The position numbers and the translations under genes are program-made. DNA of 64,000 nucleotides from contig CBDASK010000003.1 in assembly GCA_965199495.1 (NCBI GenBank), positions 3,040,001-3,104,000 of the forward strand, in the 5' to 3' direction. Positions 2,132 to 62,580 of this stretch are shown in pieces (the stretch's first letter is position 1; each line of letters starts with the position of its first letter). The notes below the pieces were generated by a model. That model worked only from the letters and a program-made list of their open reading frames with translations, was not told the origin of the DNA and did no database searches. Source of the stretch: Abditibacterium sp. (GTDB lineage Bacteria > Armatimonadota > Abditibacteriia > Abditibacteriales > Abditibacteriaceae).

Positions 2132-2251
2132 ATTTGTTGGCTTCCGGCGCGAGATATTTGCGGCTGCTAATCAAGTAAACGCGACGGTCAGACGTTAATT
2201 TTGTTGGCCTCCCACCTTTATGCCCGCGCCTTTATCTTCTATCCTTTCTCA

Positions 2252-2869: not shown

Positions 2870-2879
2870 AAAGCCCAAA

Positions 2880-2981
2880 ATGAAAAACGAATTTTCGCCG
2901 CTCGATGTCGCGCTCTCGCTGTGGCTGTTGGTCATGTTCGGGATTTTCTTCGGCTTCTCCGGGCCATTGCTGAATTTGTGA
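2880..2981 (+). CDS. Putative 33-aa single-pass membrane protein (below ORF-track cutoff)
   Basis: ATG 2880 to TGA 2981 reads MKNEFSPLDVALSLWLLVMFGIFFGFSGPLLNL; fills the gap between two co-oriented genes. Confidence 0.5.
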   Translation: MKNEFSPLDVALSLWLLVMFGIFFGFSGPLLNL

Positions 2982-3034
2982 TTTTGGTTTGAATTATTCC
3001 GCGAAATCCATCCCAATTCTAAAACCTCTGCCCG

Positions 3035-4978: not shown

Positions 4979-4993
4979 AATTTCTTCGCGCCC

Positions 4994-5088
4994 GTAGAGA
5001 CGCCGATTTATCGCGTCTAAAATGGTTTGCTCGTCTTATACGTAAACGCAAGTTTGACATTTTAGACGCGATAAATCGGCGTCTCTAC
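4994..5088. repeat. GTAG-type REP doublet (REPIN-like)
   Basis: Perfect 31-bp inverted arms GTAGAGACGCCGATTTATCGCGTCTAAAATG (4994-5024 / 5058-5088). Confidence 0.85.
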
Positions 5089-5101
5089 AAAAGAAAATTC
5101 C

Positions 5102-32433: not shown

Positions 32434-32523
32434 TTTTTCGCGTCAGGCGTTAAACGAATATTTCCCCTCTTTGATTTTACAGGCGCAACACCGCGCTTCA
32501 ACGTTCTTCTCTTCCGCATCGCC

Positions 32524-35616: not shown

Positions 35617-38600
35617 ATGGAAAACCTAAATTCTGCCGACACAATCGAAGCGCGTCTGGATAAGTTAGAAGCGCAAATGCTGCGCGTCGAGCGACGTTTG
35701 CACCTTGACGCGCCTGCCATTGTGATGGACGCGCTACCAGCCACGCCGCCAGTATCGCCGCCGCCCGTGGCTGGGCCAACTTCGTTTGCACCGACCATTG
35801 TCGTGCCTTCCGCGAAGCCGGAAAATGTGGCGGTTGAAGCGCTCGCCAAATCCGCAGAATCACCAGTTTCTGCGCCCGCGCCGCGTCCTCAAATTCCAGC
35901 GCCAGCCTCTGCCTCCGTGCCGATTCCATCGAATGAACCAGCGAGAGCGGCAGTTTCTCTGCTCGCTTGGGAGCAGTTAGTCGGCGGCAAATGGGCGTTG
36001 TGGGCGGGATTGTTGTCGGTTTTCGGCGCCATCGCTTCGTTTTTGGCGTATACGTGGCGCTACTTTTCGCCCGAATCAAAAGTGGCGTTGGGGCTGTTCA
36101 TCGGCATCGCGTTTTTAGTGGCGGGCGAGTGGACGCGCAAGCGCGCGCAGCGTTGGTTTAGCGAAGGCGTTTCGGGCGCTGGCTTGGGATTTTGCTTTTT
36201 GAGTTTATGGGCGGGCGGCGCGCACTTCTCGATTTTCGGGTTCGGCCTCACTTTCGGCGCGATGGCTTTGGTTTGCGCGCTGGGCGTGTGGCTGGCGGTG
36301 CGCTACGACGCGCTCGGCCTCAACATTTTGAGCGTCATCGGCGGCTTTGCCACGCCGATGTTGTTGCGCGGCGACGCGGCGGGCGGGCACGGCGCGGCGG
36401 TTTCGTTGTTGGTTTACCTCGCGATTTTGAACGCGGGCGCCCTGGGCGTTTCGCTGTTCAAGCGTTGGCGCGCCTCGGTCTGGCTGAGTTTCGGCGCGAC
36501 TTTGACGCTGCTGTTTTTCTGGTTGCCCGATTCCAACATTGACGCGATGCGGCTCACGGTCTGGGCGTTTTTCAGCCTCCATTTTGCGCTTTATGTCGGC
36601 GCAGCGTGCTTTTACAGCTTGGCGCGCCGCGAACAGACCACGCCCGAAGACATCGGTTTAATTTTGGCGGCGACCACGATTTACGCGCCGTTCGCGCACG
36701 ATTTGCTGTTGCCAATCGCGGGCGCATTTCCGGGCGCGTTCATGCTGGTTTTCGCGGTTTTCTGGAGCGCGTTGTGCGCCTTGGTGGCGCGGTTGGCACC
36801 CGCCAATAAATTATTGCGCGACGTGACGGGCGCGCTCGGACTTTTGGCGTTGACGGTCGCGATTCCGATTCAGGTTTCGCAGCCGTGGCTCGGCATCGCG
36901 CTGATGGGCGAAGCCGCCGTGTTGGCGGGCTTGGCGAATCGCCATCGCGACGCCCAATTGTTGCGGCGCGCCGGACAAATCGTGTGGGCGTTGGCGCTTT
37001 TGCCGCTCGTCGCCGGTTTGGTTTCGCCCGCCGGTAGCGTGCGATTTGGACTTTACGAAGGCAGTTGGCCGATGCTTTTTGGCGTCGCGGTCAGCGCGTG
37101 GCTGGCGTGGAGCGCGCATTGTCAAAGCGCCCGCGAAAATAACGTTAAAGCCGAAGAATTGGTTGATTATTATGTCACAGCCGCCGTCGCGAGTAGCGCG
37201 TGGCTGCTCGCGCGTGAGCTGTTGGCGCGCGGATTCGCGCCGCAAAGCGCGATAATGGCGGTCGGGTTTTTGGCGGTTGCCGTCTTTATTTTGGGTGCCA
37301 AAACGCGTTTTGTCGCCGTGCAAATTTGCGCGTTGGTGGGGGCGGTTTGCGTCGCGACGGCGGCGATTATGCTCGATTCATCGCAAGCCGCGCCCGCAGT
37401 TTTGCCGCTTAGCAACGCGCGCTTTGTGGCGCTCATTGGCACGGCGGGCGCGCTCTATGTTTTGACGTGGCTGGCGCGCCAAAACCAGAATGAACTGCTG
37501 CGGCGCGCTGGACAAATTATCTGGGTTTTGGCGTCGCTGCCGTTGTTTCAGGGCACGCTGTTTTCGGCGAGCGCGGCGCAGTGGGGCTTGCATTGCGGCG
37601 GCTGGCCGGGTGTGTTCGCCATTTCAATGACGGCGGCACTGGCGTGGAGCGCGCACCGCCACACCAAAAACGCCGACGAACTGCGCAACGTTTACGCGGG
37701 CATCGCCGTCGTGGGCGGCGCGTGGCTGATCGGGCGCGAGACGCTGGCGTGGACGCACGACGCCAACGGCGTTACGATGGCGCTTTCACTCTTCGCGGTC
37801 GCGATTTTCGCGGTCGGCGCGACGGCGCGCTTCGCGATGCTGCGCGCGTGCGCGGGCGTTTTGGCGGCGGGCGCGGCTTCGGCGGTTTTGTGGTTGGCGT
37901 GGTCGCATCCGTCGCCCGAATTGTTACCATTCTGGAACGCGCGCTTCGTCGCGATGACGATAACGCTGGGCGCGTTAGTGGCGATTTATCAAATCGCGCG
38001 CACGGTAGATTATCCATTGCACGACGCCGAAAAAGTGGCGGCGCGCGCGCTGCCCGTCGCCGTGGCAACGCTCGCGCTGGCGGCGTTTTCGAGCGAGATT
38101 TATTTCGGGTTCGCCCATTTCGCGCCGCCGCAATGGGCCAATCGCGCTTATTTCGTGTTAGCCATCGGCTGGAGTTTGTCCGCGCTGGGCGCGTTATCGG
38201 TCGGATTGCAAACGCGCAATATCAGTTGGCGCGTGTGGGCTTATGTCGTGGGCGGCGTGGCGTTGGCGTCTTTGCCAATTAATGCGTTGACCGGCGACGC
38301 GTTGGGAATGCCATTTCTCAACCTGCGATTCGCCGCGTTTGCCGTTGCCATCGCGGCTTTGTGCGTGGCCGCGTGGCGGCTGCGCACAGGCGAAATCGCG
38401 GGCGCGATTTCCGAGGGCGAGGCCGAAGCCATCGGCGCGGCGGCGAGCGCGGCTTTGGTGTTGGCGCTGTTTTCCTTGACGCAGGAAACCTGGGAAGCCG
38501 GGCGCTATTTGGCGCCGCGCGGCAGCGATTGGCAACGCGGCGCGCAGCTGGCGATTTCCCTCGTCTGGTCGCTGTTCGGCGCGCTTTTGCTGGCGGGCGG

Positions 38601-49241: not shown

Positions 49242-49769
49242 ATGAAGAACACTCTTTTTTTCCAACCGCGTCTCTGGGGCGCACTGACGCTCTCGATTTT
49301 GACGATGGCTCCGTTACCGTTTGTGTTAGCGGTGCCCGGCGCTTCCACTGTGGCGCCGATTGTCAAAGCGCAGTTGCAGGCTTTCAAAGTTCTGCTGCAA
49401 AAAGATGGCGACGAAAAGCTGGCTGCTGCCGACATCGCCAATCCCGGCGATGTCATCGAGTATCAGGCGACCTATTCCAACGATAGCCAGCGCGCCGCGA
49501 CCAATCTCAACGCCACGTTGCCAATTCCCGCCGCGCTATCTTATGTGCCCAACACAGCCACGCCGAGTGGGTTCATGGCCTCGACCGACGCCAAGACCTT
49601 CGCGCCCGCGCCGCTCAAGCGCGCGGTTAAAGACGCCAATGGCAAAACCGTGACCGTTCTGGTGCCGTTTTCCGAATATCGCGCGTTGCGTTGGAACGTG
49701 AAACAGTTGGCGCCCGGCGCCGATTTCAAGGTCAGCGCGCGCGCCAGCGTGCCCAAAGTCGGCAAATAA
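49242..49769 (+). CDS. Small secreted single DUF11-like domain protein (putative pilus chaperone/cap)
   Basis: Signal peptide from ATG 49242; PGDVIEYQATYSN..IP..LSYV..LRWNVKQLAPG. Confidence 0.75.
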   Translation: MKNTLFFQPRLWGALTLSILTMAPLPFVLAVPGASTVAPIVKAQLQAFKVLLQKDGDEKLAAADIANPGDVIEYQATYSNDSQRAATNLNATLPIPAALSYVPNTATPSGFMASTDAKTFAPAPLKRAVKDANGKTVTVLVPFSEYRALRWNVKQLAPGADFKVSARASVPKVGK

Positions 49770-49889
49770 AATCGCGTTGAAGTAACGCCTTTCCCTCGGT
49801 TTCCCCGGCCCGAAATTCAAACAAGTTGCCCTTGTTTTTAGTTTCGTGCGCCGCATTTTTTTGAAACAATTTAGAAAACCTTTTTCAAC

Positions 49890-52538
49890 ATGACCCAAAC
49901 TCCTTCTCCCTCGCGTTTAAAAACGCTCAAGCGCGCCATGCCCTTCGTGGCATTGGCCATGTCCGCTGGCTTTGTGGCCGCGCCCGCGTGGGCACAGGCT
50001 CCGCGCGCTGGAACTTCCATCGGCAACCAGGCGACCGCCACCTATAACGACGGCTCCAACATCCCGCGCGACGTGCAGTCGAACAGCGTGACGACCCTCG
50101 TTCAGCAGGTCGCTGGCGTTGACCTGACCGATCCGCGCACCATCAACGCGGCGCCCGGCGCGCCCATCGCGTTCCCGCACACCATTCAGAACACGGGCAA
50201 CGGCAACGATTCGTTCAACATCGGCGTGACCGAAAGCACGGGCGATGACTTCAATATCGGTTATCAGGTCTACGCCGACGCCAACCAGGACGGCGTGCCC
50301 GACAATAACACGCCCATCACCGTGACGCCGTCGTTGCAGCCGGGCGAGAAGTTCAACTTCGTCGTCGTCGGCACGGTGCCCGCGAATCAGGCGGCGACCA
50401 AAAACGCCAGCATCACCGTCACCGCGACTTCGACGACGACCAGCACGACCAACGACGCCAACGCCGACAAGGTGATCGTCACCAGCAATGCGGTTATCAA
50501 CGTGGTGAAATCGGTGAGCGCGCCGGTTATCAACACGACGACCAAGGTCGCGACCTATACCTACACGCTGACCTATACCAACAACTCGAACGTGAATTCT
50601 GGCGCCGTTGCCCTGAGCGACACGCTGGATGCGCGTTTGGCTTATAAAGCCGCTTCGGGTTTGTGGAGTGTTTCGGGCACGACGGCGCTGGGCGACAACG
50701 CTGGCAACGCCGACGATCCAGCGGGCATCACCTATGCTCGCAACGCGCAGTTGATTACGGCGACCATCGCGAACGTTCCGGCGCGTAGCACGGGCCGCGT
50801 TTCGTTCTCGGTGGACGTGGCTCCCACGACGGCTCCGGGCTTGATTCCCAACTTCGCCACCTTCGCCTACGACGACGACAACGATGGTAACACCGCCACG
50901 ACCGGGACGGCTTCGGTCAATGGCACGACCAACACGGTAGATGTGAACGTCGGTCAGGCGCCCCTCGTCGCCATCACCAGCCAATCGCAAGGCCCGGTGC
51001 CTCAGGGTTCGACGGTTGTGTTCACCAACACCGTGACCAACAACGGTAACGGTAACGATGTCTTCAACATCACCCTTTCGCCATCGGGCACGCCGTTCCC
51101 TGCGGGCACCGTCTTCCAGTTGTTCCAGCCCGGCGGCGCGGCGGCTTTGCTCGATTCCAATGGCGATGGCATTCCCGATACCGGCCCGATCCTCGCTGGC
51201 GGCACCTATAACGTGATCGTCAAGGCGATTTTGCCTCCGACGACCTCCGGCACCGGCCCCTTCGTCGAAAACGTGATCGCGACCTCGACGACCGGCGCCA
51301 AACCCGCCGCAACCGGCACCGACACGGTGACTTCAATCACCAAATCGGCGGTGGACATCACCAACCGCGACGCCAGCAACAACCGCATTGACGAAACCAC
51401 CCCCGGCGTCACCAATCCGGTTTTGACGCGCACCAGTGGCCCCGGCACCGTCGTGACCTTCCCGCTGTCGGCCAACAACAAGTCGGCTGTCAACGATAAC
51501 TATGCGCTGTCGTTTGTGCCCAACCCGGCTCTGCCCGCCGGCTTTAGCGTCGTCTTCAAAGACCTCAACGGCAAAGTCATCACCAATACCGGCAACATCG
51601 CGCCCGTTGTTCCCGATCCGGCAAATCCAGGCAGCTTCACCAAAGGCGGCTTCTTCGATTATGTCGCCGAAGTCACCATTCCCGCCGGTGCCACGCCGCA
51701 GGACATCGCATTGGCTTTCGCCATCACGTCGGGCGCGTCGGGCGCGACCGATACCGTTAACGACAAATTGACCGTTAGCCCGTTCAACGCGCTGACGATC
51801 ACGCCCAACAACCAAGGCCAGGTCTTCCCCGGCTCGTCGGTCAACTATGCGCACGTCATCACCAACGATGGCAACACCGACGAAACCAACGTCGTCGTGA
51901 CGGCGACCGATTCCCTGGCGGGCTTCTCGTCGGTCATCTACGCCGACAATGGCGCTGGAACCCACGCGGGTAACGGCATCCTCGATCCCGACGAATTGGC
52001 GGCTGGCCCATTGGCAGCCACCGGCATCCCTACGCTCGCTCCCAAAGCGAACTTCCCGATTATCGTTGTGGTCTTTGGCCCCTCGAACCAGTTCACATCG
52101 GGCGCCGTTGACACCACGACCGTGACGGCGACCTCCGCCGGTGGCCGCACAGCCACGGCGACCGACACCACCACGATTGTGGCGGGCGATGTCGTGATGA
52201 CCAAATCGCAATCGGTCAATGGCGCCGCCGCCACGCAGGGCAACGCCGTTGCCAAGCCCGGCGATGTCATTCGCTACACGATTACCGTGCGCAACACCGG
52301 TGGCGCTCCGGTCAACACCGTCGTGGTTTCGGACACCACCCCGGCGTTCACGACCTACAGCGACACCAACAGCGCTGGCACCGCCGATCCGGCTTCGTTC
52401 ACCATCGGCACCGCCGCCGCCGTGGCTGCCACCTCCGCTCCGACCAACGGCGTGGCGGGCACCATCAAATGGACGATTCCCACGCTCAACCCCGGCGAAG
52501 TCGCCACAGTGACCTTCAACGTGAAGATCAACAAATAA
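49890..52538 (+). CDS. Secreted multi-Ig DUF11-repeat protein (putative shaft pilin)
   Basis: Signal peptide ending AWA; Thr/Asn-rich Ig repeats; DxNxDG loops; strongly C-ending codons suggesting high expression. Confidence 0.85.
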   Translation: MTQTPSPSRLKTLKRAMPFVALAMSAGFVAAPAWAQAPRAGTSIGNQATATYNDGSNIPRDVQSNSVTTLVQQVAGVDLTDPRTINAAPGAPIAFPHTIQNTGNGNDSFNIGVTESTGDDFNIGYQVYADANQDGVPDNNTPITVTPSLQPGEKFNFVVVGTVPANQAATKNASITVTATSTTTSTTNDANADKVIVTSNAVINVVKSVSAPVINTTTKVATYTYTLTYTNNSNVNSGAVALSDTLDARLAYKAASGLWSVSGTTALGDNAGNADDPAGITYARNAQLITATIANVPARSTGRVSFSVDVAPTTAPGLIPNFATFAYDDDNDGNTATTGTASVNGTTNTVDVNVGQAPLVAITSQSQGPVPQGSTVVFTNTVTNNGNGNDVFNITLSPSGTPFPAGTVFQLFQPGGAAALLDSNGDGIPDTGPILAGGTYNVIVKAILPPTTSGTGPFVENVIATSTTGAKPAATGTDTVTSITKSAVDITNRDASNNRIDETTPGVTNPVLTRTSGPGTVVTFPLSANNKSAVNDNYALSFVPNPALPAGFSVVFKDLNGKVITNTGNIAPVVPDPANPGSFTKGGFFDYVAEVTIPAGATPQDIALAFAITSGASGATDTVNDKLTVSPFNALTITPNNQGQVFPGSSVNYAHVITNDGNTDETNVVVTATDSLAGFSSVIYADNGAGTHAGNGILDPDELAAGPLAATGIPTLAPKANFPIIVVVFGPSNQFTSGAVDTTTVTATSAGGRTATATDTTTIVAGDVVMTKSQSVNGAAATQGNAVAKPGDVIRYTITVRNTGGAPVNTVVVSDTTPAFTTYSDTNSAGTADPASFTIGTAAAVAATSAPTNGVAGTIKWTIPTLNPGEVATVTFNVKINK

Positions 52539-52544
52539 TGGATT

Positions 52545-52588
52545 GCGTTACAGGCTTTGGCGACTTCGGTTGATAAAGCCTGTAACGC
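52545..52588 (+). terminator. Stem-loop directly after the putative pilin gene
   Basis: GCGTTACAGGCTTT-N16-AAAGCCTGTAACGC; no clear U tract. Confidence 0.5.
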
Positions 52589-52597
52589 CGATCGCGT

Positions 52598-52776
52598 ATT
52601 TATAGCTCTTACCCACTCCATTGTCATTCTGAGCGAGAGAGGAACGAACGGAGTCGAAGAATCCATGACGTAAGGATTTCGACAAAAGTCAAGTTCAATC
52701 GCAACCTATGGATTCTTCGACTCCGTTCGTTCCTCTCTCGCTCAGAATGACAATGGAGTGGGTAAGAGCTATAAAT
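52598..52776. repeat. Long inverted repeat, GTCATTYYGAGCGA family, copy 2
   Basis: Perfect 69-bp arms 52598-52666 / 52708-52776. Confidence 0.88.
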
Positions 52777-52898
52777 CAAATTTCCCACCCAAACCCCAAC
52801 CGAACTCATTTGACGCGAGCGTGGAACGCGGTTCCAGTCCCTCCTCTTTCGCTTCAAATGTCCGTTTCGGATATTGCCCATTTTATCGCTTCGCCCCC

Positions 52899-55800
52899 AT
52901 GAACGTTTTTGCTGCTCGCATCGCTCACCTCATTCGTCCCGCCACTTGCGCCCTGTTGGGCGCTGCCCTGATGGCCACTTTGGGCGGCGTGGCTGATGCC
53001 CAGACACCCAGCGCCGGAGTCGCGATCTCCAATCAGGCGAGCGCGAGCTACGAATTGGGCGATGTCATCGTCAACCTGCTTTCCAATCGCGTGCAGGTCA
53101 CCGTCGCGCCCGTCGAAGGGTTGCGCCTCACCGCCGACAACGCCAAACAGGTGCCCATCGGTGCGCCGGTTTCGTTTCCCCATCGCCTGACCAATACCGG
53201 CAACGTCGCGACTTCCTACAACTTCAACGTGAGCAACCAAACCGGCGACGATACCGATCTGTCGGATTTGCGCATTTATGGCGACCTTAACGGCAACGGC
53301 ATCGTGGACGAGGGCGAACCGCGCCTCGACAATGGCGCCGCGCCGGTTGGGTTGGAAGCCGGTCAATCCACCGATTTGTTGGTGACCGGCACCGTGCCCG
53401 TCACTGCCAGCGCCGGGCAAAGCGCGCGCGTCCAGCTCGAAGCCGTGACGCAAAACGCGACGGCGCGCGCGCAAAACGTGGACACAGCCACGGTGGCGCT
53501 GGGCGCCTCGGTCGAAGTGCGCAAAGAAGCCTCGCGCCAGAACGCTTCGCGCGGCGACCAGATTAGCTACGATTTGACCGCGATTTCGCGCGGCGGCGTC
53601 GCGCCCACGCCGACCAATTTAACCGTGGACGGCGCCGCGCGTGCCCTGGTTTTACTGCGCGATAGCGTGCCCGCCAACACGACGTTGGTCAGTTGGACCA
53701 AAACCGGCAACGGCCTGTTGCTCTATCATCGCATCGGCGACGCCGCCAACGCCTACGTCACCGCGCAACCCGATAGCGCCGCTGGCGTTATCACCGATGG
53801 CGTCGCGCTGGGATTGGACAACTTTATTCCCAACTCGACGGTGCGCGCCACGCTCACGGTGCGCGTCAATAACAACGCCAGCGGCAGTTTCGATAACACC
53901 GCCGATGTGATTTATCGCGAGGCGGGCGCCGACCGTACCATCAGCGCGCCGTCGAACACCGTGGGTGTCGCCGTGCCCATCGCGCCGCCGACATTGGCCT
54001 ATTACACGAGCGCGGGTTACACGCGCGAGGCGACGGTGACCGGTTTGAATCGCCCGCTGTTTTTGCAGGGCGACAGCGCCGCCTGTAACGTTGACCCGAC
54101 TGCCGTTGAGCGCGTGACGCTGACGTTGACTTCGACTTTGACCGGCGATTCGATTCGCACGCAGATGATCGAAACCGGCCCCAATACGGGCATTTTTCGC
54201 GTCGAAAATCCGATTCCCACCTCCGACGGCGCCGCCGTGGCTGATGATGGCGTCTTGCAGATTTTGCGCGACGACGTTTTGCAAGCGCGCCTGAGCGGTT
54301 GCGGCACCGCCGACGCCGTCGCGCGCATTTTGGTTGACCCGCTCGGCGTGGTTTACGACGCGCGCACCAACCAACCCGTGAGCGGCGCGCGCGTCACTTT
54401 AATTGACGCCGCGACCGGCCAACCTGCGCGCGTCTTCGATTTTGATGGCGTGACGTCACGTCCATCAACAGTGACAACCGGCGCCGATGGCGTGTTTCAG
54501 TTCCCGCAGGTCGCGCCCGGTCGCTATCGTTTGCAAATCGAGCCGCCCGCCAATTATCTGTTTCCCTCGAAATTGGCGCCCGCCAACCAGCCACCGGGTC
54601 GCACGATTGACGCGTCGGGTTCCTATGGCGGCGAGTTCGCCGTTGACGCCGCGACTGGCGCCGTCGTTTTGGATGTGCCGCTCGATCCGCCGCAGGGCAC
54701 CGGATTGTTCGTGGACAAAATCGCCCGCTCGCGCGACGCCGAAATCGGCGGCACGGTGGATTATCAGGTCACCATTCGCAACGTCGCGGGTGTCGCCGTC
54801 AACAACGTTCAATTATTGGACGGTCTGCCGCGCGGCCTGACCTACGTCGCGGGCAGCGCCCGCCGCCAGAGCGCGAGCGGCGCCAACGGCACGCCCGGCA
54901 TTTTCGCCGCGTTGCCCGATCCGCGCATCGAAAACGTGCGCGCTTTGACCTTTAATATCGGCACATTGGCCAAAGACGAATCGGCAATTATCACCTATCG
55001 CACACTGATCGGCCCCGGCACGCCGACCGGCAAAGTGCGCAATAGCGCGCGCGCCACCGGTGCCACAAACTTTGATTCGTATACATCCAACACGGCCAGC
55101 GCGATTGTCGAGATTCGCGGCGGCGTCTTCACCACGCGCGGCGTTTTGATGGGCCGCGTCTTCGTGGACTCCAATAACAATGGTCGCTTCGACCGCGACG
55201 AATTGGCGGTGCCCGGCGCGCGCATCTTTTTGGAAGATGGCACTTACGCCGTCACCGACGGCGACGGACAATGGACGATTTACGGCGTTTTGCCCCTGAC
55301 GCACGTCGTCAAAATTGACCGCACCACGTTACCAATCGGCGCCACGCTCAAACCGCTCACGGTGAATTACGCGGGCAAAGGCGATTCGGTTTTCGCCGAC
55401 CTGAAAAACAGCGAACTCCAGCGCATCAACTTCGCGCTGAGTAGCACCACCGAGGCTCAAATTGCCGACGTGAAAGCGCGCATCGCCAAGGGTCAAAACG
55501 AGGCGCCCGAAATCACCACGCAACTGCAAAATACGCTCACGACTACGCCCAACACGCAACTCGGCGACACCCGCGCGCAACCCGCGACCGGCGTTGTCGG
55601 CGGCGTGGCTGGCCCGACGAACCAGAATCAGACCTCGCGCACCGTGCAATCGAACGCGCCCGCAGGCATTGACGCGCGCCCGCTTCGCACGGCGGGCGAT
55701 GGCCCGCTCGACGGCCAGTTCGCCCCAGCCACGGCGCCTTCGCTGGAAGCGGGCGCGCGCGAAATCGAAGAGCTTTTGGCGACGCTGCAACCCGGCATCG

Positions 55801-58800
55801 GCATTTTGGGCTACAAAGACGGCGACACTTTGCTGAGCGATCAGATCAACGTGCGCGTCAAGGGCGACGCGGGCACCACGCTGAAACTGACGCTCAACGA
55901 CAAAGCGGTGGACGATGACCGCATCAGCGTGCGTTCGGAAGATAGCAAGCGCGGCGTGCAGGTTCGCGAATATATCGGCCTGAAACTGCGCGCGGGCGAG
56001 AATAATTTGCAACTCAGCCAGATCGATTCGTTTGGCGTGGCGCGCGGCGAAGCGTCGGTGAAGCTCGTTGCCCCCGGTTCGTTGGGCCGCTTGAAATTGA
56101 CGGTGCCAAACGTTGGCGTGCCCGCCGACGGACAGACGGGGACGAAAATTAACGTCGAGTTGGTGGACGACAAAGGCGTGCGCGTCACGGCCCGCACGCC
56201 GATCACGCTCGAAGCCAGCGCGGGCCGTTGGAATGTGCGCGACCTCAACGACACGCAGCCCGGCGTGCAGGTTTTCATCGAAGGCGGGCAGGGCAGCTTT
56301 GAACTGATTCCGCCGTTTGAACCCGGCCAGGCCGTCGTCAAAGTCGCGGCGGGCATTATTTCAGCCGACGCCAAAGTGTCGTTCGTGCCGTATTTGCGCC
56401 CGGTTGTGGCGGCGGGCATTTTCGAGGGCCAATTCGGCTTCAAGGCCAAAGGCGCTTCGCAAATGCCCATCGCGGCTTTCGAGCGCGAATTGCAATCCAT
56501 CACCGGCAACGGCGGCGGACGCGCGGCGGGCTATATTAAGGGCCGCATTCAGGGCAAATATCTGTTGTCAATGCGCTTCGATACGCAGTCAGCCGAAGAC
56601 AACCGGCTATTTCGCGACATTCAGCCCGACGAGTTTTATCCGGTTTATGGCGACAGTTCGACCAAAGGTTTCGACGCGCAGTCCACCGGCAAACTCTACA
56701 TTCGCGTGGACAAAGATCATTCCTACGCGCTCTATGGCGATTTCACGACTTATGCGGCGGACGGATCGGAATCGCTGGGACGCTACGGGCGCGCTTTAAC
56801 CGGCGGTCAAATTCACAGCGAGGACGACAAGTATTCGGCGACGGCGTTTGTTTCGCGCACCAGCGCTTCGCGTATCGTGCAGGAAAAGCGCGCCAATGGC
56901 ACGAGCGGCGTTTACCAACTGGGCGTTTCGGATATTCGCCCGCAATCGGAAATCGTCGAGATTATTGTTCGCGACCGCAACAATCCGGGCCGCGTCATCA
57001 GCGCCACGCAGCAGACGCGTTTCACCGACTACACGCTCGACGGCTTTACTTACGGTCTGCTGTTTCGCCGCCCGATTCCGTCGTTTGACGAAGATGGCAA
57101 TCCGATCTTCATCCGCGTGACCTACGAGCGCGAAACCGGCGGGCCCGACTTCACCGTCTCCGGCGTGGCTGCTCAATATAAAATCGGCAACCGTTTGCAG
57201 GTTGGCGCGGGCGTCGTGCAGGACGACGACCCGACGCGCAAGATGAATATGCGCTCGGTCAACGGCGCGTTGCGTTTGAGCGACGACACGATTTTGGTCG
57301 CCGAATACGCCCAAACCGACACGCCCGAATTCGGTACCGCCGGGGCTTCGCGCTTTGAACTGCGCAAAGACGGCGCGAATTTTCAGGCGCGCGCTTATAC
57401 CGGCACGGCATCGCTCGGCTTCAACAATCCCGAATCGGCCTTGACGCGTGGACGCAGCGAAAGCGGCGTGCAGTTGTCGGCCAAAATCGGCGCCAAAACG
57501 CAGGTCAGCGCCGAAGCGATTCGCACCAAAGACGGCCAGAGCGGCGCCCAAACGCAGGGCGTGCAAGTCGGTTTGGATCACGCGTTTACCAACGATATTC
57601 GCGGCGGCATCGGCATCCGCAACGCCAGTGGCGATGCGTCGGCCAGCTTCGGCGGAACCGGGCAGGACAACTTGAGCTTCACCTCGATTTACGGGCGCTT
57701 GAACGCGCGCGTCGGAGCCAAATCGAACGCTTTCACGCGTTACGAGCAGCAACTGGGCGGCGGCAATCGCTCGCTTTCCCTTGGCGCCGATTATCAGATC
57801 GCACCGCAAACGCGACTCTACGCGATTCACGAATTCTTCGATTCGCCGCTCTCGCTTTACGCTTTGGGCGATACGCAGCGCCGCTACGGCACGCGTCTGG
57901 GCATCGAGACGGCGTATATGCGCGGCGGCACTTTGTTCAGCGAATATCGTCTGGCGGGCGGCGTTGACGGGCGCACCGCGCAGGCGGCGATTGGGCTGCG
58001 CAACCAGTGGAAGTTGGGTCAGGGCATCGGCGTTTCGACCAGTCTGGAGAACACGCGTAATTTGAATGGCGGCATCAATAACGTTGGTTCAACCGCTAAT
58101 TTGGGCGGCGACAATGGCACGGCGGCTTCGATTGGTTTCGAGTCGCTCGGCTCGGACAAATTGAAGTGGACGACGCGTTTGGAAGGTCGCGATGGACAGA
58201 GCAAGACCTTAACAGCCACGGCGGGCGCGGCCTATCAGGCGTCGCGCGATTTGACGATGCTGGGCCGCGCGGCCTACGCCAAATCGAGCGCGGGCGGGTT
58301 CACCGGCACTGGCGGCGTGGCTGCTGTTGGCGGCTTCGACCAGAAGCAGACGCGCGTGCAGTTCGGGCTGGCTTATCGGCCCGTTAAAAGCGACCGTTTT
58401 GTGGCGCTACTCAAATATGAACTGCGCGATGGCGACGATCCGTCGGGCATCGGCGTGCGCTTGCAGCGCCGCCAGAACATCATCAGCGCCGACGCTAACT
58501 ATTTGGTTTCGCAGTCGTTGCAGGCGCGCCTGCACTACGCGTTCAAAAACAGCCGCGACAACACCGATGGCTTGCTGACATCCAGCTCGGCGCACTTGCT
58601 GAGCGGGCGTTTGTCCAAAGACATTACGCGCCGATTGAACCTGTCGCTTTTGGGTTCGACGCTGTGGAACGGCGATTCGCGTCAGGTCGCTTACGGCATC
58701 GAAGCCGGTTACGGTTTGACCGATAATCTGCTGCTCTCGCTCGGTTATAATTTCAGCGAACTGCGCAACCGCGACTTCGCCGACGAGACGCTGGGCAAAG

Positions 58801-59027
58801 GTTTTTATCTGCGCATGCGACTGAAATTCGACGAAGATTTGTTTAGCAACGTGAAAGCGTTCCAGCGCGCGCCCATCGCCAGCAACGCGCAGCCGTTTGT
58901 GCCAGTCACGCAGGGCGGTTTTGGCGGCGGCATCATCGGCAGCAGCGAGTCGGCGGGGTTGGATAGTTTTTCCGGCACGGCGGCGCCCAGAATTGGCGGC
59001 GGCAACGCTATCGGAGGTGTCCGTTAA
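52899..59027 (+). CDS. Large outer-membrane protein: DUF11 and SdrD-B-like domains plus C-terminal beta-barrel (putative pilus anchor/usher)
   Basis: Signal peptide from ATG 52899; GRVFVDSNNNG domain; long amphipathic-strand region ending LSLGYNF..GFYLRMRLKFDE. Confidence 0.82.
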   Translation: MNVFAARIAHLIRPATCALLGAALMATLGGVADAQTPSAGVAISNQASASYELGDVIVNLLSNRVQVTVAPVEGLRLTADNAKQVPIGAPVSFPHRLTNTGNVATSYNFNVSNQTGDDTDLSDLRIYGDLNGNGIVDEGEPRLDNGAAPVGLEAGQSTDLLVTGTVPVTASAGQSARVQLEAVTQNATARAQNVDTATVALGASVEVRKEASRQNASRGDQISYDLTAISRGGVAPTPTNLTVDGAARALVLLRDSVPANTTLVSWTKTGNGLLLYHRIGDAANAYVTAQPDSAAGVITDGVALGLDNFIPNSTVRATLTVRVNNNASGSFDNTADVIYREAGADRTISAPSNTVGVAVPIAPPTLAYYTSAGYTREATVTGLNRPLFLQGDSAACNVDPTAVERVTLTLTSTLTGDSIRTQMIETGPNTGIFRVENPIPTSDGAAVADDGVLQILRDDVLQARLSGCGTADAVARILVDPLGVVYDARTNQPVSGARVTLIDAATGQPARVFDFDGVTSRPSTVTTGADGVFQFPQVAPGRYRLQIEPPANYLFPSKLAPANQPPGRTIDASGSYGGEFAVDAATGAVVLDVPLDPPQGTGLFVDKIARSRDAEIGGTVDYQVTIRNVAGVAVNNVQLLDGLPRGLTYVAGSARRQSASGANGTPGIFAALPDPRIENVRALTFNIGTLAKDESAIITYRTLIGPGTPTGKVRNSARATGATNFDSYTSNTASAIVEIRGGVFTTRGVLMGRVFVDSNNNGRFDRDELAVPGARIFLEDGTYAVTDGDGQWTIYGVLPLTHVVKIDRTTLPIGATLKPLTVNYAGKGDSVFADLKNSELQRINFALSSTTEAQIADVKARIAKGQNEAPEITTQLQNTLTTTPNTQLGDTRAQPATGVVGGVAGPTNQNQTSRTVQSNAPAGIDARPLRTAGDGPLDGQFAPATAPSLEAGAREIEELLATLQPGIGILGYKDGDTLLSDQINVRVKGDAGTTLKLTLNDKAVDDDRISVRSEDSKRGVQVREYIGLKLRAGENNLQLSQIDSFGVARGEASVKLVAPGSLGRLKLTVPNVGVPADGQTGTKINVELVDDKGVRVTARTPITLEASAGRWNVRDLNDTQPGVQVFIEGGQGSFELIPPFEPGQAVVKVAAGIISADAKVSFVPYLRPVVAAGIFEGQFGFKAKGASQMPIAAFERELQSITGNGGGRAAGYIKGRIQGKYLLSMRFDTQSAEDNRLFRDIQPDEFYPVYGDSSTKGFDAQSTGKLYIRVDKDHSYALYGDFTTYAADGSESLGRYGRALTGGQIHSEDDKYSATAFVSRTSASRIVQEKRANGTSGVYQLGVSDIRPQSEIVEIIVRDRNNPGRVISATQQTRFTDYTLDGFTYGLLFRRPIPSFDEDGNPIFIRVTYERETGGPDFTVSGVAAQYKIGNRLQVGAGVVQDDDPTRKMNMRSVNGALRLSDDTILVAEYAQTDTPEFGTAGASRFELRKDGANFQARAYTGTASLGFNNPESALTRGRSESGVQLSAKIGAKTQVSAEAIRTKDGQSGAQTQGVQVGLDHAFTNDIRGGIGIRNASGDASASFGGTGQDNLSFTSIYGRLNARVGAKSNAFTRYEQQLGGGNRSLSLGADYQIAPQTRLYAIHEFFDSPLSLYALGDTQRRYGTRLGIETAYMRGGTLFSEYRLAGGVDGRTAQAAIGLRNQWKLGQGIGVSTSLENTRNLNGGINNVGSTANLGGDNGTAASIGFESLGSDKLKWTTRLEGRDGQSKTLTATAGAAYQASRDLTMLGRAAYAKSSAGGFTGTGGVAAVGGFDQKQTRVQFGLAYRPVKSDRFVALLKYELRDGDDPSGIGVRLQRRQNIISADANYLVSQSLQARLHYAFKNSRDNTDGLLTSSSAHLLSGRLSKDITRRLNLSLLGSTLWNGDSRQVAYGIEAGYGLTDNLLLSLGYNFSELRNRDFADETLGKGFYLRMRLKFDEDLFSNVKAFQRAPIASNAQPFVPVTQGGFGGGIIGSSESAGLDSFSGTAAPRIGGGNAIGGVR

Positions 59028-59049
59028 GCGCTCGCGCTCGGAGAATATC

Positions 59050-62000
59050 ATGAACCTCAAACGTTTCAAACAACTCGTGGCGCGCGCGGCTCTGGGCCTG
59101 ACTCTGGTGGCGGCTTCGCTGGGCAACGCGCGGGCGGCGCGCGCGGTTTGCGGCACGCCCGGCAAAGATGGGCCATTTACCGGCGGCGGCGTGGTCAACT
59201 CCTATTTCGCTTCGGCGCAGTCGGCCTCGGCGGGCGACCGAACCGTCATTTTGTCGTCGTCGCCGCGCGCTGACGGAGCGCAGACCGGCATCAGCGTGGG
59301 CGACTTGCTGCTGCTGTGGCAAACCCAGGGCGCCACCATTAACTCGACCAACAACGAAAGTTACGGATCGGGCAATGCCGCCAACAATGCGCGCGGTTAC
59401 ACCTCGCTCAACGGCGCGGGCAACTACGAATTCGTGCGCGTTACGGCGGTTAATGGCGGCACTCTCACCGTCGCGGGCGATGGCGCGGGCGGCGGTCTGC
59501 GTTTTTCTTATAGCTACGATCCGACGGCGATTCCGCGCCAGACGTTTCAGGTCGTGCGCGTGCCGCAGTATTCGAGCATGACTTTGACGAGCGCGCTGGC
59601 GCCGGTCAAGTTCGATGGCACCACGGGCGGCGGCATTTTCGTGGATGTTGCGGGCACCGTCACCTTCAGCACGACGACGGGCGCCAGCGTCTATCAGACC
59701 GGTTTTCGCGGCGGTTTCGCGCCGATCAACGACGCGGTCAACTCCAACTCCAATTCGGTCTATCCGATTCCCAACAAGCCGCGCAACGGCGCGGGCAAAG
59801 GCGAGGGCATCGCCGGGCGCCCGCGTTTCGTGTGGAACGAAACGACCGACACCGACAACGGCGTCGAGGGTTATCCCGGCGGCGACGGCGGGCGCGGCGC
59901 GCCCGGCAACGCGGGCGGCGGCGGCAACGCGCACAACTCGGGCGGCGGCGGCGGCTCGAATTCGGGCGCGGGCGGGCGCGGTGGCTATCCGTGGGAAGGC
60001 CAGCCCAGCCAGGCGGGCACCGTCTTCGACACCGTGGCCAACACCAATGGCACCACACGCCAGGTGCCGCGCGCCTGGGGCCAGGGCGCGGCGGCCTTGC
60101 TCAACGGCGGCGCGGCTTTTACCGATCATCTGTTTATGGGTGGTGGCGGCGGCGGCGGCGACGCCAACAATGCCACGACCGGCGTCAAGGGCGGCGTCGG
60201 CGGCGGCGTGATTATCCTGCGCGCGGGCAGTTTCGCGGGCGCCACGACCATTGATGCGCGCGGCGACGCCGGAGATCGCGGCGTCTTTGCCAACGCGCCC
60301 GACGGCGCGGGCGGCGGCGGCGCGGGCGGCACCGTGATTTTGGTTTCGCGCAATTCCAGTTCGGCCTCGATTACCGTCAACGCGCAGGGCGGCGCGGGCG
60401 GCAATACGGTCAACGATCCAATCGATCCGGGTTCGGGCGCCAACAACGGCACGACCTCGCACGGGCCGGGCGGCGGCGGCGGCGGCGGCACCGTGATCTA
60501 TTCGGGACTCAGCGTCACGGCCAACCTCGCGGGCGGCACGGCGGGCAAAACCAACGACGGCGGAACCGGCTCCATTTCGCACGGCGCGGCGGGCGGCGCG
60601 ACGGGTTTGACCGCGCCGCTCACTGCGGGGCAGGGCAATGGACTGACCGATAACGGCGACGGTTGCGCCGCGACTCTCACGGTCACCAAATCTACCACGA
60701 CGCCCTCTGTGGCTGCTGGCACCAACGCGACTTATCAGGTCACTATTGCCAACACGGGCACGGGGAGCGCGGCGGGCGTCGTGGTTGACGACGCGTTGCC
60801 GGTTCCTTTTGCCTACGATCCGGCCTCGCCCGCGACCATCATTTATACGGTGGGCGCGAGTGGCCCGGCGACGTTGGCGGGCACCAACAACACCGCTAAT
60901 GGCGTGACGACCACGCGTTTTGGCACGGCGGGTGACAGCACCAAAACCTTCTTCGTCGGCGCGGGCGCCAGCCTAACGCTGACTTTCGCGGTCAAAACCA
61001 CGGGCGCTCTGCCCGCCAAATACGATAACTCAGCGACCGTGCGTTTCGCTGAACCGCGCCGCACCGATGCCACAATTTTGGTTTCGCCTGGTGGCAAATA
61101 CGCCAATGGAACGACCGTTACGGGTTCCAATTACAACGGAACTCTGGCTGCCAACACCGCCGAAGACGTGACGATTCAGGGCAGCGTGAGCGGCACGGTC
61201 TATCTCGACGCCAACCGCAACGCCACGCTCGATAGCACCGAAAGCGGCGCGAATATCAACAATCTGTTCGTTAAAGCCGTTTTGTCGGGCCAAGCCAGCG
61301 CCGCGCAGGCCGTGCCGGTAACTGCCGCGACGGGCGCGTTCAGTTTCAGCGGGTTAGCGCCCGGTAATTACACGCTCGTGCTGGACGACAACGCGACTTT
61401 GACCGACATCACGCCCGCGCTTCCCGCCGGATATATCGGCACCGAATCGCCGGGCGGCACGCGGCAAATTACCGTCGCCAATCAGGCGCTTCAAAACCAG
61501 AACTTCGGTTTGTTCAACGGCGCGCAGATTAGCGGCAGCGTCTTCGAGGACGGCGGCAACGGCACTGGCCCCGGATTGGGCGGCGTCAAAGTCAATTTGA
61601 CCAAGGCCGACGGCACCATCATTGACACCACGACGACCGATGCCAGCGGCAATTTCGCCTTCAAAGTGCCCAACTCGGTCGGCGCGGGCGTGCTCAAAGT
61701 CGTCGAGTTCAACCTCAGCGGCTACAACTCGGTGAGCGGCAACATCGGCACAACCGGTGGCACTTACGATCAACCGACCGACATAATTTCGTTCCCCTAT
61801 GCGGCGGGTTCGACTTATACCGGACTCAAATTCGGCGATTCGCGCGGCATTACGTTTATTGGCGAAGACGCGAAAACCGGAACGGCGGGTTCGTCGGTGT
61901 TCTATCCGCACGTCTTCGCTTCGCAAACTGCGGGCAACGTGACTTTTACCACGGCGCAACTGCCGACGCCCGCCAACACGGGCTGGAGCGTGGTGACTTT

Positions 62001-62529
62001 CCGCGATAGCAACGGTAACGGCGTTTTGGATGGCGGCGACGCGCAGATCACCGGGCCGGTCGCCGTGGCTGCTGGCGTGCCGATCACGATATTCCTGCAA
62101 AACTTCATCCCGACAACCGCCGCCAATGGCGCGCAGGATAAGCTGACGGTGACAGCGAACTTCACGCCAACAACGGGCGCGGTTCAGTCCATCGCGCGCT
62201 CAGACTTGACGACTGTCGCCGCCAATCAAGGTTTGCTGTTGAGCAAAGCCGTGGACAAAACGACCGCCAAAAGCGGCGACGTTCTGGTTTACACCATCAC
62301 CTATCGCAATACGGGCGCCGAGGCTTTGACCAACCTCGTCGTCAAAGACGCGACGCCTTCTTACACAACATTCCAGAGCGCAACCACCGGGCCGCTCCCG
62401 ACTGGTTTAACGGCGCCAACGATCGCCGCGCCGAGCGCCAACGCCAAAGGCGCCGTGACGTGGACGTTCGGCGGCATTTTGAATCCGGGCCAGAGCGGAA
62501 CGGTGACATTTAATGTGAAGGTTCAGTAA
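59050..62529 (+). CDS. Secreted Gly-rich adhesin with DUF11 and SdrD-B-like stalk (putative tip adhesin)
   Basis: GGAG RBS then ATG 59050; signal peptide; GGGGG-rich head; SGTVYLDANRN and SGSVFED domains; C-terminal DUF11. Confidence 0.82.
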   Translation: MNLKRFKQLVARAALGLTLVAASLGNARAARAVCGTPGKDGPFTGGGVVNSYFASAQSASAGDRTVILSSSPRADGAQTGISVGDLLLLWQTQGATINSTNNESYGSGNAANNARGYTSLNGAGNYEFVRVTAVNGGTLTVAGDGAGGGLRFSYSYDPTAIPRQTFQVVRVPQYSSMTLTSALAPVKFDGTTGGGIFVDVAGTVTFSTTTGASVYQTGFRGGFAPINDAVNSNSNSVYPIPNKPRNGAGKGEGIAGRPRFVWNETTDTDNGVEGYPGGDGGRGAPGNAGGGGNAHNSGGGGGSNSGAGGRGGYPWEGQPSQAGTVFDTVANTNGTTRQVPRAWGQGAAALLNGGAAFTDHLFMGGGGGGGDANNATTGVKGGVGGGVIILRAGSFAGATTIDARGDAGDRGVFANAPDGAGGGGAGGTVILVSRNSSSASITVNAQGGAGGNTVNDPIDPGSGANNGTTSHGPGGGGGGGTVIYSGLSVTANLAGGTAGKTNDGGTGSISHGAAGGATGLTAPLTAGQGNGLTDNGDGCAATLTVTKSTTTPSVAAGTNATYQVTIANTGTGSAAGVVVDDALPVPFAYDPASPATIIYTVGASGPATLAGTNNTANGVTTTRFGTAGDSTKTFFVGAGASLTLTFAVKTTGALPAKYDNSATVRFAEPRRTDATILVSPGGKYANGTTVTGSNYNGTLAANTAEDVTIQGSVSGTVYLDANRNATLDSTESGANINNLFVKAVLSGQASAAQAVPVTAATGAFSFSGLAPGNYTLVLDDNATLTDITPALPAGYIGTESPGGTRQITVANQALQNQNFGLFNGAQISGSVFEDGGNGTGPGLGGVKVNLTKADGTIIDTTTTDASGNFAFKVPNSVGAGVLKVVEFNLSGYNSVSGNIGTTGGTYDQPTDIISFPYAAGSTYTGLKFGDSRGITFIGEDAKTGTAGSSVFYPHVFASQTAGNVTFTTAQLPTPANTGWSVVTFRDSNGNGVLDGGDAQITGPVAVAAGVPITIFLQNFIPTTAANGAQDKLTVTANFTPTTGAVQSIARSDLTTVAANQGLLLSKAVDKTTAKSGDVLVYTITYRNTGAEALTNLVVKDATPSYTTFQSATTGPLPTGLTAPTIAAPSANAKGAVTWTFGGILNPGQSGTVTFNVKVQ

Positions 62530-62539
62530 AAGTAGCGCG

Positions 62540-62580
62540 ACAAAAAAGAGCCAGCGAGACTGTTCGCTGGCTCTTTTTGT
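62540..62580. terminator. Bidirectional terminator between convergent genes
   Basis: AAAAAGAGCCAGCGA-N6-TCGCTGGCTCTTTTT. Confidence 0.8.

Follow-up and report, generated by a model that had tools for sequence, protein, structure and literature searches.

Divided DUF11 domains in a four-gene operon of Abditibacterium sp.: a candidate isopeptide-locked surface fibre in outer-membrane bacteria

Introduction

The window analysed here, a 64,000-nucleotide stretch from Abditibacterium sp. (assembly GCA_965199495.1, contig CBDASK010000003.1, positions 3,040,001 to 3,104,000), contains at 49242-62529 on its + strand four co-oriented genes, A, B, C and D, which are neighbours in one operon and which we consider as a candidate system for building a covalently locked surface fibre. 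Their common feature is an immunoglobulin (Ig)-like domain of the DUF11 type that is divided between proteins: B and D end in a copy that lacks its last two strands, here called the acceptor, and B and C carry the corresponding two-strand hairpin, here called the donor, at their mature N-termini. Using profile searches, comparison of related loci and structure modelling, we describe the divided domain and its distribution, the natural fusions in which the two halves meet within one chain, and the extent to which these observations argue for a fibre assembled head to tail.

The operon and its divided domains

Gene A (49242-49769, + strand) encodes a secreted protein of 175 amino acids (aa) with a single DUF11-like domain; it lies inside the span of the initial annotation of this locus, yet is unmentioned in its text. 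Gene B (49890-52538, + strand) encodes an 882-aa protein, the putative shaft pilin, in which a signal peptide and an N-terminal donor hairpin are followed by about five Ig-like domains that are complete and, at the C-terminus, by a truncated DUF11 acceptor. Gene C (52899-59027, + strand) encodes a putative anchor or usher-like protein of about 2,042 aa with a giant C-terminal beta-barrel, and gene D (59050-62529, + strand) a putative tip protein of about 1,159 aa, which has a C-terminal truncated DUF11 acceptor and no donor. The most likely starts are ATG 52899 for C, rather than the opening of the open reading frame (ORF) at 52758, and ATG 59050 for D, rather than the opening at 58897. As read by eye, all four proteins begin with a hydrophobic leader followed by a small-x-small site, that is, a Sec-type signal peptide, and the host genome carries a single copy of the operon.

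A Pfam scan of the four proteins at E <= 0.01 places DUF11 (PF01345; 114 positions, cut-off 24.6 bits) in B (46.7 bits), C (43.5) and D (50.6), with A scoring just under the cut-off at 23.5, and TIGR01451 (cut-off 24) is exceeded in all four proteins, A reaching 33 bits. C and D also contain CarboxypepD_reg, SdrD_B and SpaA-type prealbumin-like domains (Pfam, NCBIfam), which in C give the order signal peptide, donor hairpin, pilin-like Ig domains, CarboxypepD_reg, SdrD_B and DUF11 domains, and finally the giant beta-barrel. D additionally contains a Gly-rich region, a relative of the AgmC N-terminal domain, although its score of 104.9 bits is well below the family cut-off of 275. Usher, PapD-like chaperone, fimbrial and autotransporter families are all absent from the scan of A to D. 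The terminal DUF11 domains of B and D are incomplete, covering only positions 7-85 and 3-84, respectively, of the 114 positions of the hidden Markov model (HMM), with a stop codon directly after the match, which bears out the truncation that the initial annotation had proposed for B and for the Gly-rich protein. An internal DUF11 domain of C (aa 652-781), in turn, is complete and covers positions 4-110.

The undivided arrangement can be seen inside B itself, where an internal complete DUF11-type domain (50487-50951, + strand; aa 200-354) carries a full set of Lys207, Asp244 and Asn321. Along the chain, Lys207 (in VVK) and Asp244 (in SDTL) are followed by the strand VSFSVDV (304-310), a linker APTTAPG and the Asn321-bearing hairpin LIPNFATFAY...TNTVDVNV, with Asn321 lying within GLIPNFATF and TNTVDVNV at 347-354. 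Judged from its sequence, this domain is the undivided template for the split one. In the latter, the acceptor of B (52149-52535, + strand; aa 754-882) provides Lys772 (codon 52203-52205) and Asp815 (codon 52332-52334) and ends after VTFNVKINK, and the donor hairpin of B (50007-50102, + strand; aa 40-71), AGTSIGNQATATY..SNSVTTLV, provides Asn46 (codon 50025-50027). The hairpin begins about five residues past the predicted AWA/Q signal cleavage site, and the mature N-terminus of B, (Q)APRAGTSIGNQATATY...SNSVTTLV, consists of linker and hairpin. The donor hairpin of C (53013-53105, + strand), AGVAISNQASASY..SNRVQVTV, is matched by the donor HMM and has its Asn at codon 53031-53033; the acceptor of D (62236-62526, + strand) has its Lys (in LLSK) at codon 62245-62247 and its Asp (in KDATP) at codon 62347-62349, and ends in VTFNVKVQ. 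Each of these motifs and codons, which the initial annotation had placed in B, in the barrel protein and in the Gly-rich protein, was located again at exactly the same coordinates, as were the N-terminal donors of the 882-aa and barrel proteins, with no terminal acceptor in the barrel protein and no donor in the Gly-rich protein.

By profile membership and by possession of the Lys-Asp-Asn triad these domains are of the DUF11 class, but the triad is divided between the acceptor (K772 and D815) and the donor (N46), and the terminal domains of B and D are not complete single-chain domains. A pattern for the hairpin occurs in A to D only at aa 44 and 319 of B and at aa 43 and 323 of C (counted from the ATG), and in neither A nor D. 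The N-terminal motif corresponds by homology to the two closing strands of complete DUF11 domains: the pattern recurs in the tails of internal domains (B 319, C 323), and the donor profile likewise matches internal domain tails directly after acceptor-like matches. Among the 41,754 six-frame ORFs of at least 60 aa in the host's own genome, the donor profile matches only B and C, and the acceptor profile only B, D, A and the internal domain of C. Sequence searches of the PDB with the B acceptor or the B internal domain gave no useful match. The internal DUF11 domain of C aligns (E = 0.0016) to PDB 9IFR, the crystal structure of an undivided DUF11/CLIPPER domain, which, according to the part of the paper covered here, forms a Lys-Asp-Asn isopeptide bond (PMC12617251).

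Conservation across related loci

Homologues of B number more than 1,848 among the 8,000 candidates scored, and the alignment counts given here use the 120 listed (828-913 aa, 38-100% identical). Mean column identity in this alignment is 40%. Against this background the hairpin residues I44, N46, A48, D54, S64, N65 and T69 are invariant in all 120 homologues, as are K772, P790, N802, D815, P818 and T821 of the last domain; in the internal domain, N321 is again invariant, and K207 and D244 are at least 90% conserved. The initial annotation had named conservation of the Lys, Asp and Asn as a check on its proposal, and K772, D815 and N46 pass it without exception in the homologues listed.

A scan of one genome per species yielded 159 relatives, and the locus counts below rest on the best 80 loci, in which all stop-to-stop ORFs were searched with profiles for the pilin core and for the two halves, built from B 38-76 (donor) and B 760-882 (acceptor). 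As annotated, the loci come from Pseudomonadota, Verrucomicrobiota, Acidobacteriota, Bacteroidota and Balneolaceae, Nitrospirota and Candidatus Eisenbacteria, with Burkholderiales, Nevskia, Moraxella osloensis, Acinetobacter, Alpha- and 'Delta'-proteobacteria and Terriglobia among them. Loci of many phyla repeat the gene order of small protein, pilin, barrel protein and tip protein: 49 of the 56 barrel genes have a pilin gene directly upstream together with an upstream A-like gene, and a complete D-like gene follows the barrel gene in 14 of the 26 cases with at least 4.5 kb of downstream DNA, the other 12 comprising nine in which a long ORF continues past the locus end, two with another gene order and one with none. 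The N-terminal part of the D-like proteins varies between lineages, the N-terminal query of D finding 7 ORFs and its middle query 28.

The distribution of the two halves among these proteins is regular. Of the 80 pilin-like ORFs, 66 combine a donor close to the N-terminus with an acceptor that runs up to the stop codon; the remaining 14 are made up of four in which the stop-to-stop ORF extends upstream and the donor lies past the position limit, five fragments or frameshifted ORFs, one polyprotein, one ORF in which the acceptor match breaks off before the profile is complete, and three from Moraxella osloensis in which the donor is below the profile threshold, though visible by eye in one of them (L055). 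Not one of the 56 barrel-protein ORFs in the related loci has an acceptor at its C-terminal end, and a donor is recognisable in 52 of them (in 40 through a profile or pattern match, in a further 12 by eye), the other four being one ambiguous case and three truncated or masked sequences. Conversely, no donor is present in any of the 36 non-pilin ORFs that end in an acceptor, which include tip-like proteins, some A-like ORFs and some pilin fragments. The rule expected by the initial annotation, namely acceptor only at the tip, both halves in the pilin and donor only in the barrel protein, is thus kept across related operons.

The reactive residues follow the same pattern in the terminal acceptors, where the Asp is kept in all 73 B-like and all 29 D-like copies, and the Lys in 70 of the 73 B-like copies, the exceptions being one masked stretch and two insertions that shift the alignment. 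In D-like tails, hmmalign leaves the Lys column unaligned in 17 of 29, and by eye each of the 19 printed tails has a Lys in an h-x-h-x-K first strand. All 102 terminal acceptors of the related loci have their stop codon 0-5 residues beyond the point where the acceptor profile ends. With the invariance of N46, K772 and D815 and the restriction of both profiles to this operon in the host genome, this marks the pattern as more than coincidence.

In cultured strains of Moraxella osloensis (loci L055, L069 and L075), the A-B-C cluster is accompanied by a second pilin-like gene about 6-9 kb upstream, which has a divergent donor and adjoins further acceptor-ending ORFs; this suggests that several pilin types are present per cell in this species.

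Structural models of the donor-acceptor pair

When the B hairpin was docked into the B acceptor with ESMFold2 (B 36-84 into B 748-882), the pair reached an interaction prediction score from aligned errors (ipSAE) of 0.78 (runs of 0.74, 0.78 and 0.79), against 0.00 for the best of three controls. The partner had a predicted local distance difference test (pLDDT) score of 75 or more, and 96% or more of the contacts were shared between runs. Of solved complexes, 116 of 157 attain this mark, as do 2 of 215 mismatched pairs. Prediction of the acceptor domain with the donor peptide had been put forward by the initial annotation as a check, and the outcome is in its favour. In the model, hairpin residues 44-58 and 62-74 contact acceptor residues 764-774, 782-790 and 806-816; strand 48-52 is paired with 811-815, residue 48 is contacted by both K772 and D815, residue 67 by K772 and residue 49 by D815. 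Replacing the donor lowered the pLDDT of the acceptor chain from 85-86 to 64-70, a change in a model confidence score rather than a measurement.

Full-length B, modelled with AlphaFold2 (AF2), is an all-beta protein with a mean pLDDT of 88.5 and a predicted template modelling score (pTM) of 0.63, and a Foldseek search with this full pilin model returned only generic Ig tandems.

Natural fusions of acceptor and donor

Some relatives carry the two halves next to each other in a single chain. A Nitrospirota locus (L062) contains an ORF of 3,456 aa in which three complete pilin units and a portion of a fourth follow one another in frame (L062:9914-20281), and at its junctions the end of one acceptor, ...LTFGVQIV, is joined by the linker AGTPAGA to the next donor, VSVDNQTSATYND...SNTVILVV. 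Three further proteins, P0121-P0123 (3,437-4,139 aa), have 3 to 5 acceptor-donor junctions each, with a donor starting 2-6 residues behind the acceptor and with the Asn retained at the junctions printed. A second type is represented by P0124-P0127 (3,120-3,387 aa), in each of which one pilin unit is fused to further pilin-like domains and which we read as pilin-barrel fusions; among these four, an acceptor match followed by a donor match is seen in P0124 only (acceptor 770-901, donor 904-935), the chain of which ends in ...YVRLRYKFDE.., resembling C.

As far as can be told from the sequences, the fusions realise both of the junction types that are needed, pilin-pilin and pilin-barrel, in linear order. 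Their linear order argues for head-to-tail pairing in trans and against an N-terminal sorting signal, and it matches the topology predicted by the initial annotation, in that the acceptor of unit n is joined to the donor of unit n+1 in one chain.

The Nitrospirota pilin polyproteins (L062, P0121-P0123) end in two dockerin- or EF-hand-like repeats (..DLNCDGIV..DDLT.V..) and have no terminal acceptor; they retain one free N-terminal donor.

The small protein A and the barrel of C

The domain encoded by gene A ends at the same strand as the acceptors, is without the Lys, has Thr or Leu at the position of the catalytic Asp and carries no donor hairpin. In the related loci, 75 A-like ORFs lie upstream of pilin genes, with a consensus ..ATLPIP..EYR.LRW..V.ARVRV in which no Lys is conserved; they align with the acceptor up to its last strand (..V.ARVRV), after which comes a variable tail, and have Thr at the Asp position (in ATLPIP). 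As candidate roles for A we consider a non-covalent donor-capping factor or a minor cap. The most attractive of the readings, that it serves as a non-reactive decoy acceptor which keeps donor hairpins in the periplasm until assembly, still seems to us less likely than not.

The predicted outer-membrane beta-barrel of C (56409-58829, + strand) has about 40 beta-strands and an inserted small beta domain (56907-57065). An AF2 model of aa 1131-2035, made with a 54-sequence alignment, has a mean pLDDT of 80.0 and a pTM of 0.74, and shows, in order, an Ig-like domain, 8 long strands, the inserted beta domain (model residues 254-306) and 32 more long strands. The last strand, YLRMRLKF (58806-58829), has a terminal Phe like a beta-signal. 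In a Foldseek search the first 10 PDB matches of the barrel are all outer-membrane barrels, as are nearly all the rest, and they include MtrB, BtuB, Cir, SlpA, the type IX secretion system translocon SprA and LptD; neighbours in the Atlas bear automatic labels of outer-membrane barrel or TonB-dependent receptor and share no common Pfam family. Among the single-chain outer-membrane barrels predicted to date, that of C would be one of the largest. Going by the model, its lumen could pass folded Ig domains, and a function as export pore is possible, if somewhat doubtful.

A model for fibre assembly and its alternatives

Building on the split, its conservation, the donor/acceptor distribution, the confident docking model and the natural fusions, all of them computed observations, we propose that the operon encodes a head-to-tail, isopeptide-locked surface fibre assembled by split-domain complementation, with a logic like that of chaperone-usher pili, and we give this proposal as a whole a probability of roughly 0.6. 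Its parts differ in strength. The two halves very probably complement each other, and they probably do so in trans, head to tail; formation of a covalent Lys-Asn bond appears fairly likely, and we lean slightly towards more than one pilin per fibre.

According to this proposal, a CnaA-like DUF11/CLIPPER domain would be cut within the loop that precedes its last two strands, the body with the Lys and the catalytic Asp forming the last domain of D and B, and the Asn hairpin forming the mature N-terminus of B and C. After Sec export, C would be inserted in the outer membrane, and the hairpin of one subunit would complete the last domain of the more distal subunit, in the order D <- B <- (B)n <- C. 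Having an acceptor without a donor, D could only be distal; B could follow both D and itself, since both halves are present; and C, with a donor alone, could only be proximal. Docking would bring Lys772, Asp815 and Asn46 together for a spontaneous Lys-Asn isopeptide bond, with loss of NH3; since undivided CLIPPER domains form a Lys-Asn bond, the same chemistry would here join two chains. The acceptor-only tip would come first, the two-part subunits would be added at the base, and the donor-only protein would both end and anchor the fibre, with the roughly 40-strand barrel of C rooting it in the outer membrane and possibly also acting as an export pore. A may hold donor hairpins reversibly in the periplasm. 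We describe such assembly as sortase-independent because no LPxTG-type motif (LP.[TSA]G) occurs in any of the four proteins A to D.

Several observations weigh against this proposal or parts of it. In the docking model, N46 is two residues from A48 on the same strand face but is absent from the 25 lowest-error contact pairs listed. The calibration of the docking mark holds only roughly, because the alignment was self-made. The residue at the position of the bond Asn in barrel-protein donors is Asn in 37, Ser in 4 and Gly in 1 of the 42 (from 56) that could be placed in a relaxed alignment, with Ser in L063, L076, L013 and L017 and Gly in L059. With 5 of 42 barrel donors lacking the Asn, the basal link is not covalent in every lineage, and in the Ser and Gly lineages, the pilins of which keep Lys and Asp, the connection between fibre and barrel may be non-covalent. 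The Foldseek matches of the C barrel have template modelling (TM) scores of only <=0.29, so that this barrel has no close solved structural relative. A has about 12 extra residues before the EYR.LRW strand, which, by eye, may form an internal hairpin that fills its own groove, and if A fills its own groove the chaperone idea falls. Finally, the hairpin has a pLDDT of 86-95 in the full-length B monomer model, where cis docking is therefore possible, and both the docking model and the residue conservation fit pairing in cis and in trans alike.

These last two points are also the ones that favour closure in cis, in which the pilin hairpin would complete the last domain of its own chain to give a cyclised, very stable monomer, and only C and D would pair in trans; a pTM of 0.63 is, moreover, fairly high for a six-domain chain and fits a closed ring. 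AF2 is, however, known to fold inter-subunit contacts back into a monomer, and only about five residues separate the hairpin from domain 1, a spacing as between internal tandem domains, so that cis closure would require a strained six-domain ring. Taken with the tandem fusions, in which each acceptor is linked linearly to the donor of the following unit, this makes cis closure quite improbable. The same fusions bear on whether a fibre is formed at all or whether a single copy each of D, B and C joins up, with or without covalent bonds, as a long modular stalk, without B homopolymerising in vivo. Such a three-piece adhesin would agree with the balance of two donors (B, C) and two Lys/Asp acceptors (B, D) at one copy each, the pilin-barrel fusions P0124-P0127 make a single pilin unit before the barrel a viable architecture, and no computed result bears on n. 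Even so, both halves are present in B, it was a B-B pair that was modelled, the natural polyproteins with serial runs of 3 to 5 pilin units show that pilin-pilin junctions are used, and the hairpin in the DNA behind the pilin stop codon (see below) would fit an expression of pilin above that of barrel, and we regard the stalk as unlikely.

Complementation might also proceed as proposed but without the bond, with Lys, Asp and Asn serving only folding or hydrogen bonding. The 5 of 42 aligned barrel-protein donors without the Asn would fit this, as would the lack of the bond in some DUF11 domains reported in the part of the CLIPPER paper covered here (PMC12617251). On the other hand, the triad is invariant in all 120 pilins listed against a mean column identity of 40%, the same triad is kept in the internal complete domain of B, and the gene A domain has the same fold signature without Lys and Asp; since it has lost both, these residues are dispensable for the fold itself, and a purely structural role for the triad is very unlikely. 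Hardly credible, lastly, is a reading without any complementation, in which the barrel protein would recognise the N-terminal motif as a signal for sorting or secretion and the shortened terminal DUF11 domain would be no more than a compact variant. The motif does lie directly behind the signal peptide, a frequent place of sorting signals; its homology, nevertheless, is to the two closing strands of complete DUF11 domains, and it docks with an ipSAE of 0.78 against 0.00 for controls. We rejected this reading because in the natural fusions the motif stands mid-chain, directly after acceptors, where it is unable to act as an N-terminal signal.

Relation to known fibre systems

To our knowledge, covalent sortase-built pili are regarded as a Gram-positive feature, and the pili of outer-membrane bacteria as held together non-covalently. 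In sortase pili, Ig-like-domain pilins are connected by covalent Lys-based isopeptide links. Neither a C-terminal LPxTG-type signal nor a linked sortase gene is found here, the single sortase-family gene of this apparently outer-membrane-bearing genome (PF04203, 85.4 bits; contig C3 1485658-1486023) lying about 1.6 Mb from the operon. Spontaneous religation of a peptide and a body is familiar from SpyTag/SpyCatcher, an engineered split CnaB domain, from which the present case differs in that the split is natural, the domain CnaA-like and the predicted bond Lys-Asn, not Lys-Asp.

The assembly logic recalls chaperone-usher pili, of which type 1 and P pili, with FimH/PapG as tip, FimA/PapA as shaft, PapH as terminator, FimD/PapC as usher and FimC/PapD as chaperone, are the standard examples. 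Their subunits have an incomplete Ig-like fold that is made whole by the next subunit's N-terminal extension (general knowledge, and PMC11821415 in the part available). An acceptor-only tip, a donor-bearing fibre terminator, and an outer-membrane barrel and a small periplasmic Ig-like protein in the operon are common to both systems. In contrast to chaperone-usher operons, A to D contain no usher, PapD-like chaperone or fimbrial Pfam family; a hairpin of two strands from a CnaA-like DUF11 domain serves as donor instead of a single strand, with a covalent lock predicted; the pilin has about six domains (882 aa) instead of one; terminator and roughly 40-strand barrel form one polypeptide; and the small protein resembles an acceptor, not a strand donor. 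Classical autotransporters (type Va, with a 12-strand barrel) share only the order of passenger then barrel, as no such Pfam family is present and the predicted barrel region has about 40 strands.

Closest in domain family are the CLIPPER/DUF11 domains, which have the same set of Lys (first strand), Asp and Asn (penultimate strand), as far as the covered part of that paper goes (PMC12617251). There, the paper, in that part, surveys intramolecular bonds only, and the published bond lies within one complete chain, whereas here the terminal copies are cut and the hairpin would come from another protein (PMC12617251). Closest in mechanism is the 'exchange and lock' of Clostridium perfringens BsaA (TasA family), for which an incompletely covered preprint describes donor-strand exchange followed by a spontaneous intermolecular isopeptide bond, with mutations of the bond residues abolishing oligomers (bioRxiv 10.1101/2024.11.04.621531). 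BsaA differs, on the same partial source, in its TasA-like fold, Gram-positive host, single-domain subunits, lack of an outer-membrane barrel and export linked to type IV pilus genes. The archaeal thread Saci_0406 likewise combines donor-strand complementation with a proposed ammonia-releasing intermolecular isopeptide bond and uses no sortase, to go by the portion of the paper at hand (PMC9715654). According to the same portion, its bond joins the Asp24 N-terminal amino group to Asn57 of subunit n+2, rather than Lys to Asn in one completed domain, its subunit is without a Pfam domain, and the organism is archaeal and has no outer membrane (PMC9715654). The proteins described here belong to neither family, Pfam showing only DUF11-clan and prealbumin-like domains, and the resemblance is one of mechanism only. 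As far as these partly covered sources go, a donor-strand fibre with an isopeptide lock is therefore precedented, in BsaA and in archaeal threads, by unrelated folds in cells without an outer membrane; the split CnaA-like domain, the fusion of terminator and giant barrel, and the proposed decoy acceptor are without a described relative in the literature searched.

Full-text searches, which covered few subscription journals and excluded the supplements of PMC12617251, found no published description of a split DUF11 fibre or of this operon. Papers that name DUF11 beside pili were considered as prior descriptions and rejected, their topics being haloarchaeal tat-fimbriae (where the matched term was DUF1102) and a Litorilinea grappling-hook protein.

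Should the proposal hold, it would mean that a covalently locked fibre is common in outer-membrane bacteria, given the more than 1,848 pilin homologues, and that a further assembly pathway exists beside the known pilus classes; it would also provide a natural example of split-domain ligation and a source of new orthogonal tag/catcher pairs. A wider version, which we offer only tentatively, is that of a widespread pilus class in outer-membrane bacteria forming a natural SpyTag/SpyCatcher-like polymer, in which the roughly 40-strand barrel would be pore, terminator and anchor in one and a Lys/Asp-less decoy would act as chaperone. Cultured carriers exist in Ramlibacter pallidus HM2, Uliginosibacterium sp. 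H1 and Aquincola agrisoli MAHUQ-54.

Non-coding elements and base composition

The operon is closed by an intrinsic terminator (62543-62578, + strand), a 16-bp stem followed by a T run. A further hairpin (52545-52588, + strand), with a perfect 14-bp stem, a 16-nucleotide (nt) loop and no T run, lies directly 3' of the gene B stop codon and could be an attenuator or a messenger RNA stabiliser that sets the pilin:barrel ratio. Behind it, the spacer between B and C is occupied by a palindromic repeat without assigned strand (52598-52776), the 69-nt arms of which are 100% complementary and 41 nt apart. This element is one member of a family of repeats about 135-180 nt long, of which 81 matches at 73-88% identity lie elsewhere in the genome (both strands counted), and it looks like a miniature inverted-repeat transposable element (MITE) or a repetitive extragenic palindromic (REP)-like element. 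Because of its many copies, spread genome-wide, we rejected it as a component of the system, and it probably lies outside the machinery.

Elsewhere in the window, strongly negative AT skew (-0.22 to -0.34, against a background near zero) is found at 2001-6000, 26001-28000, 32001-34000 and 36001-38000.

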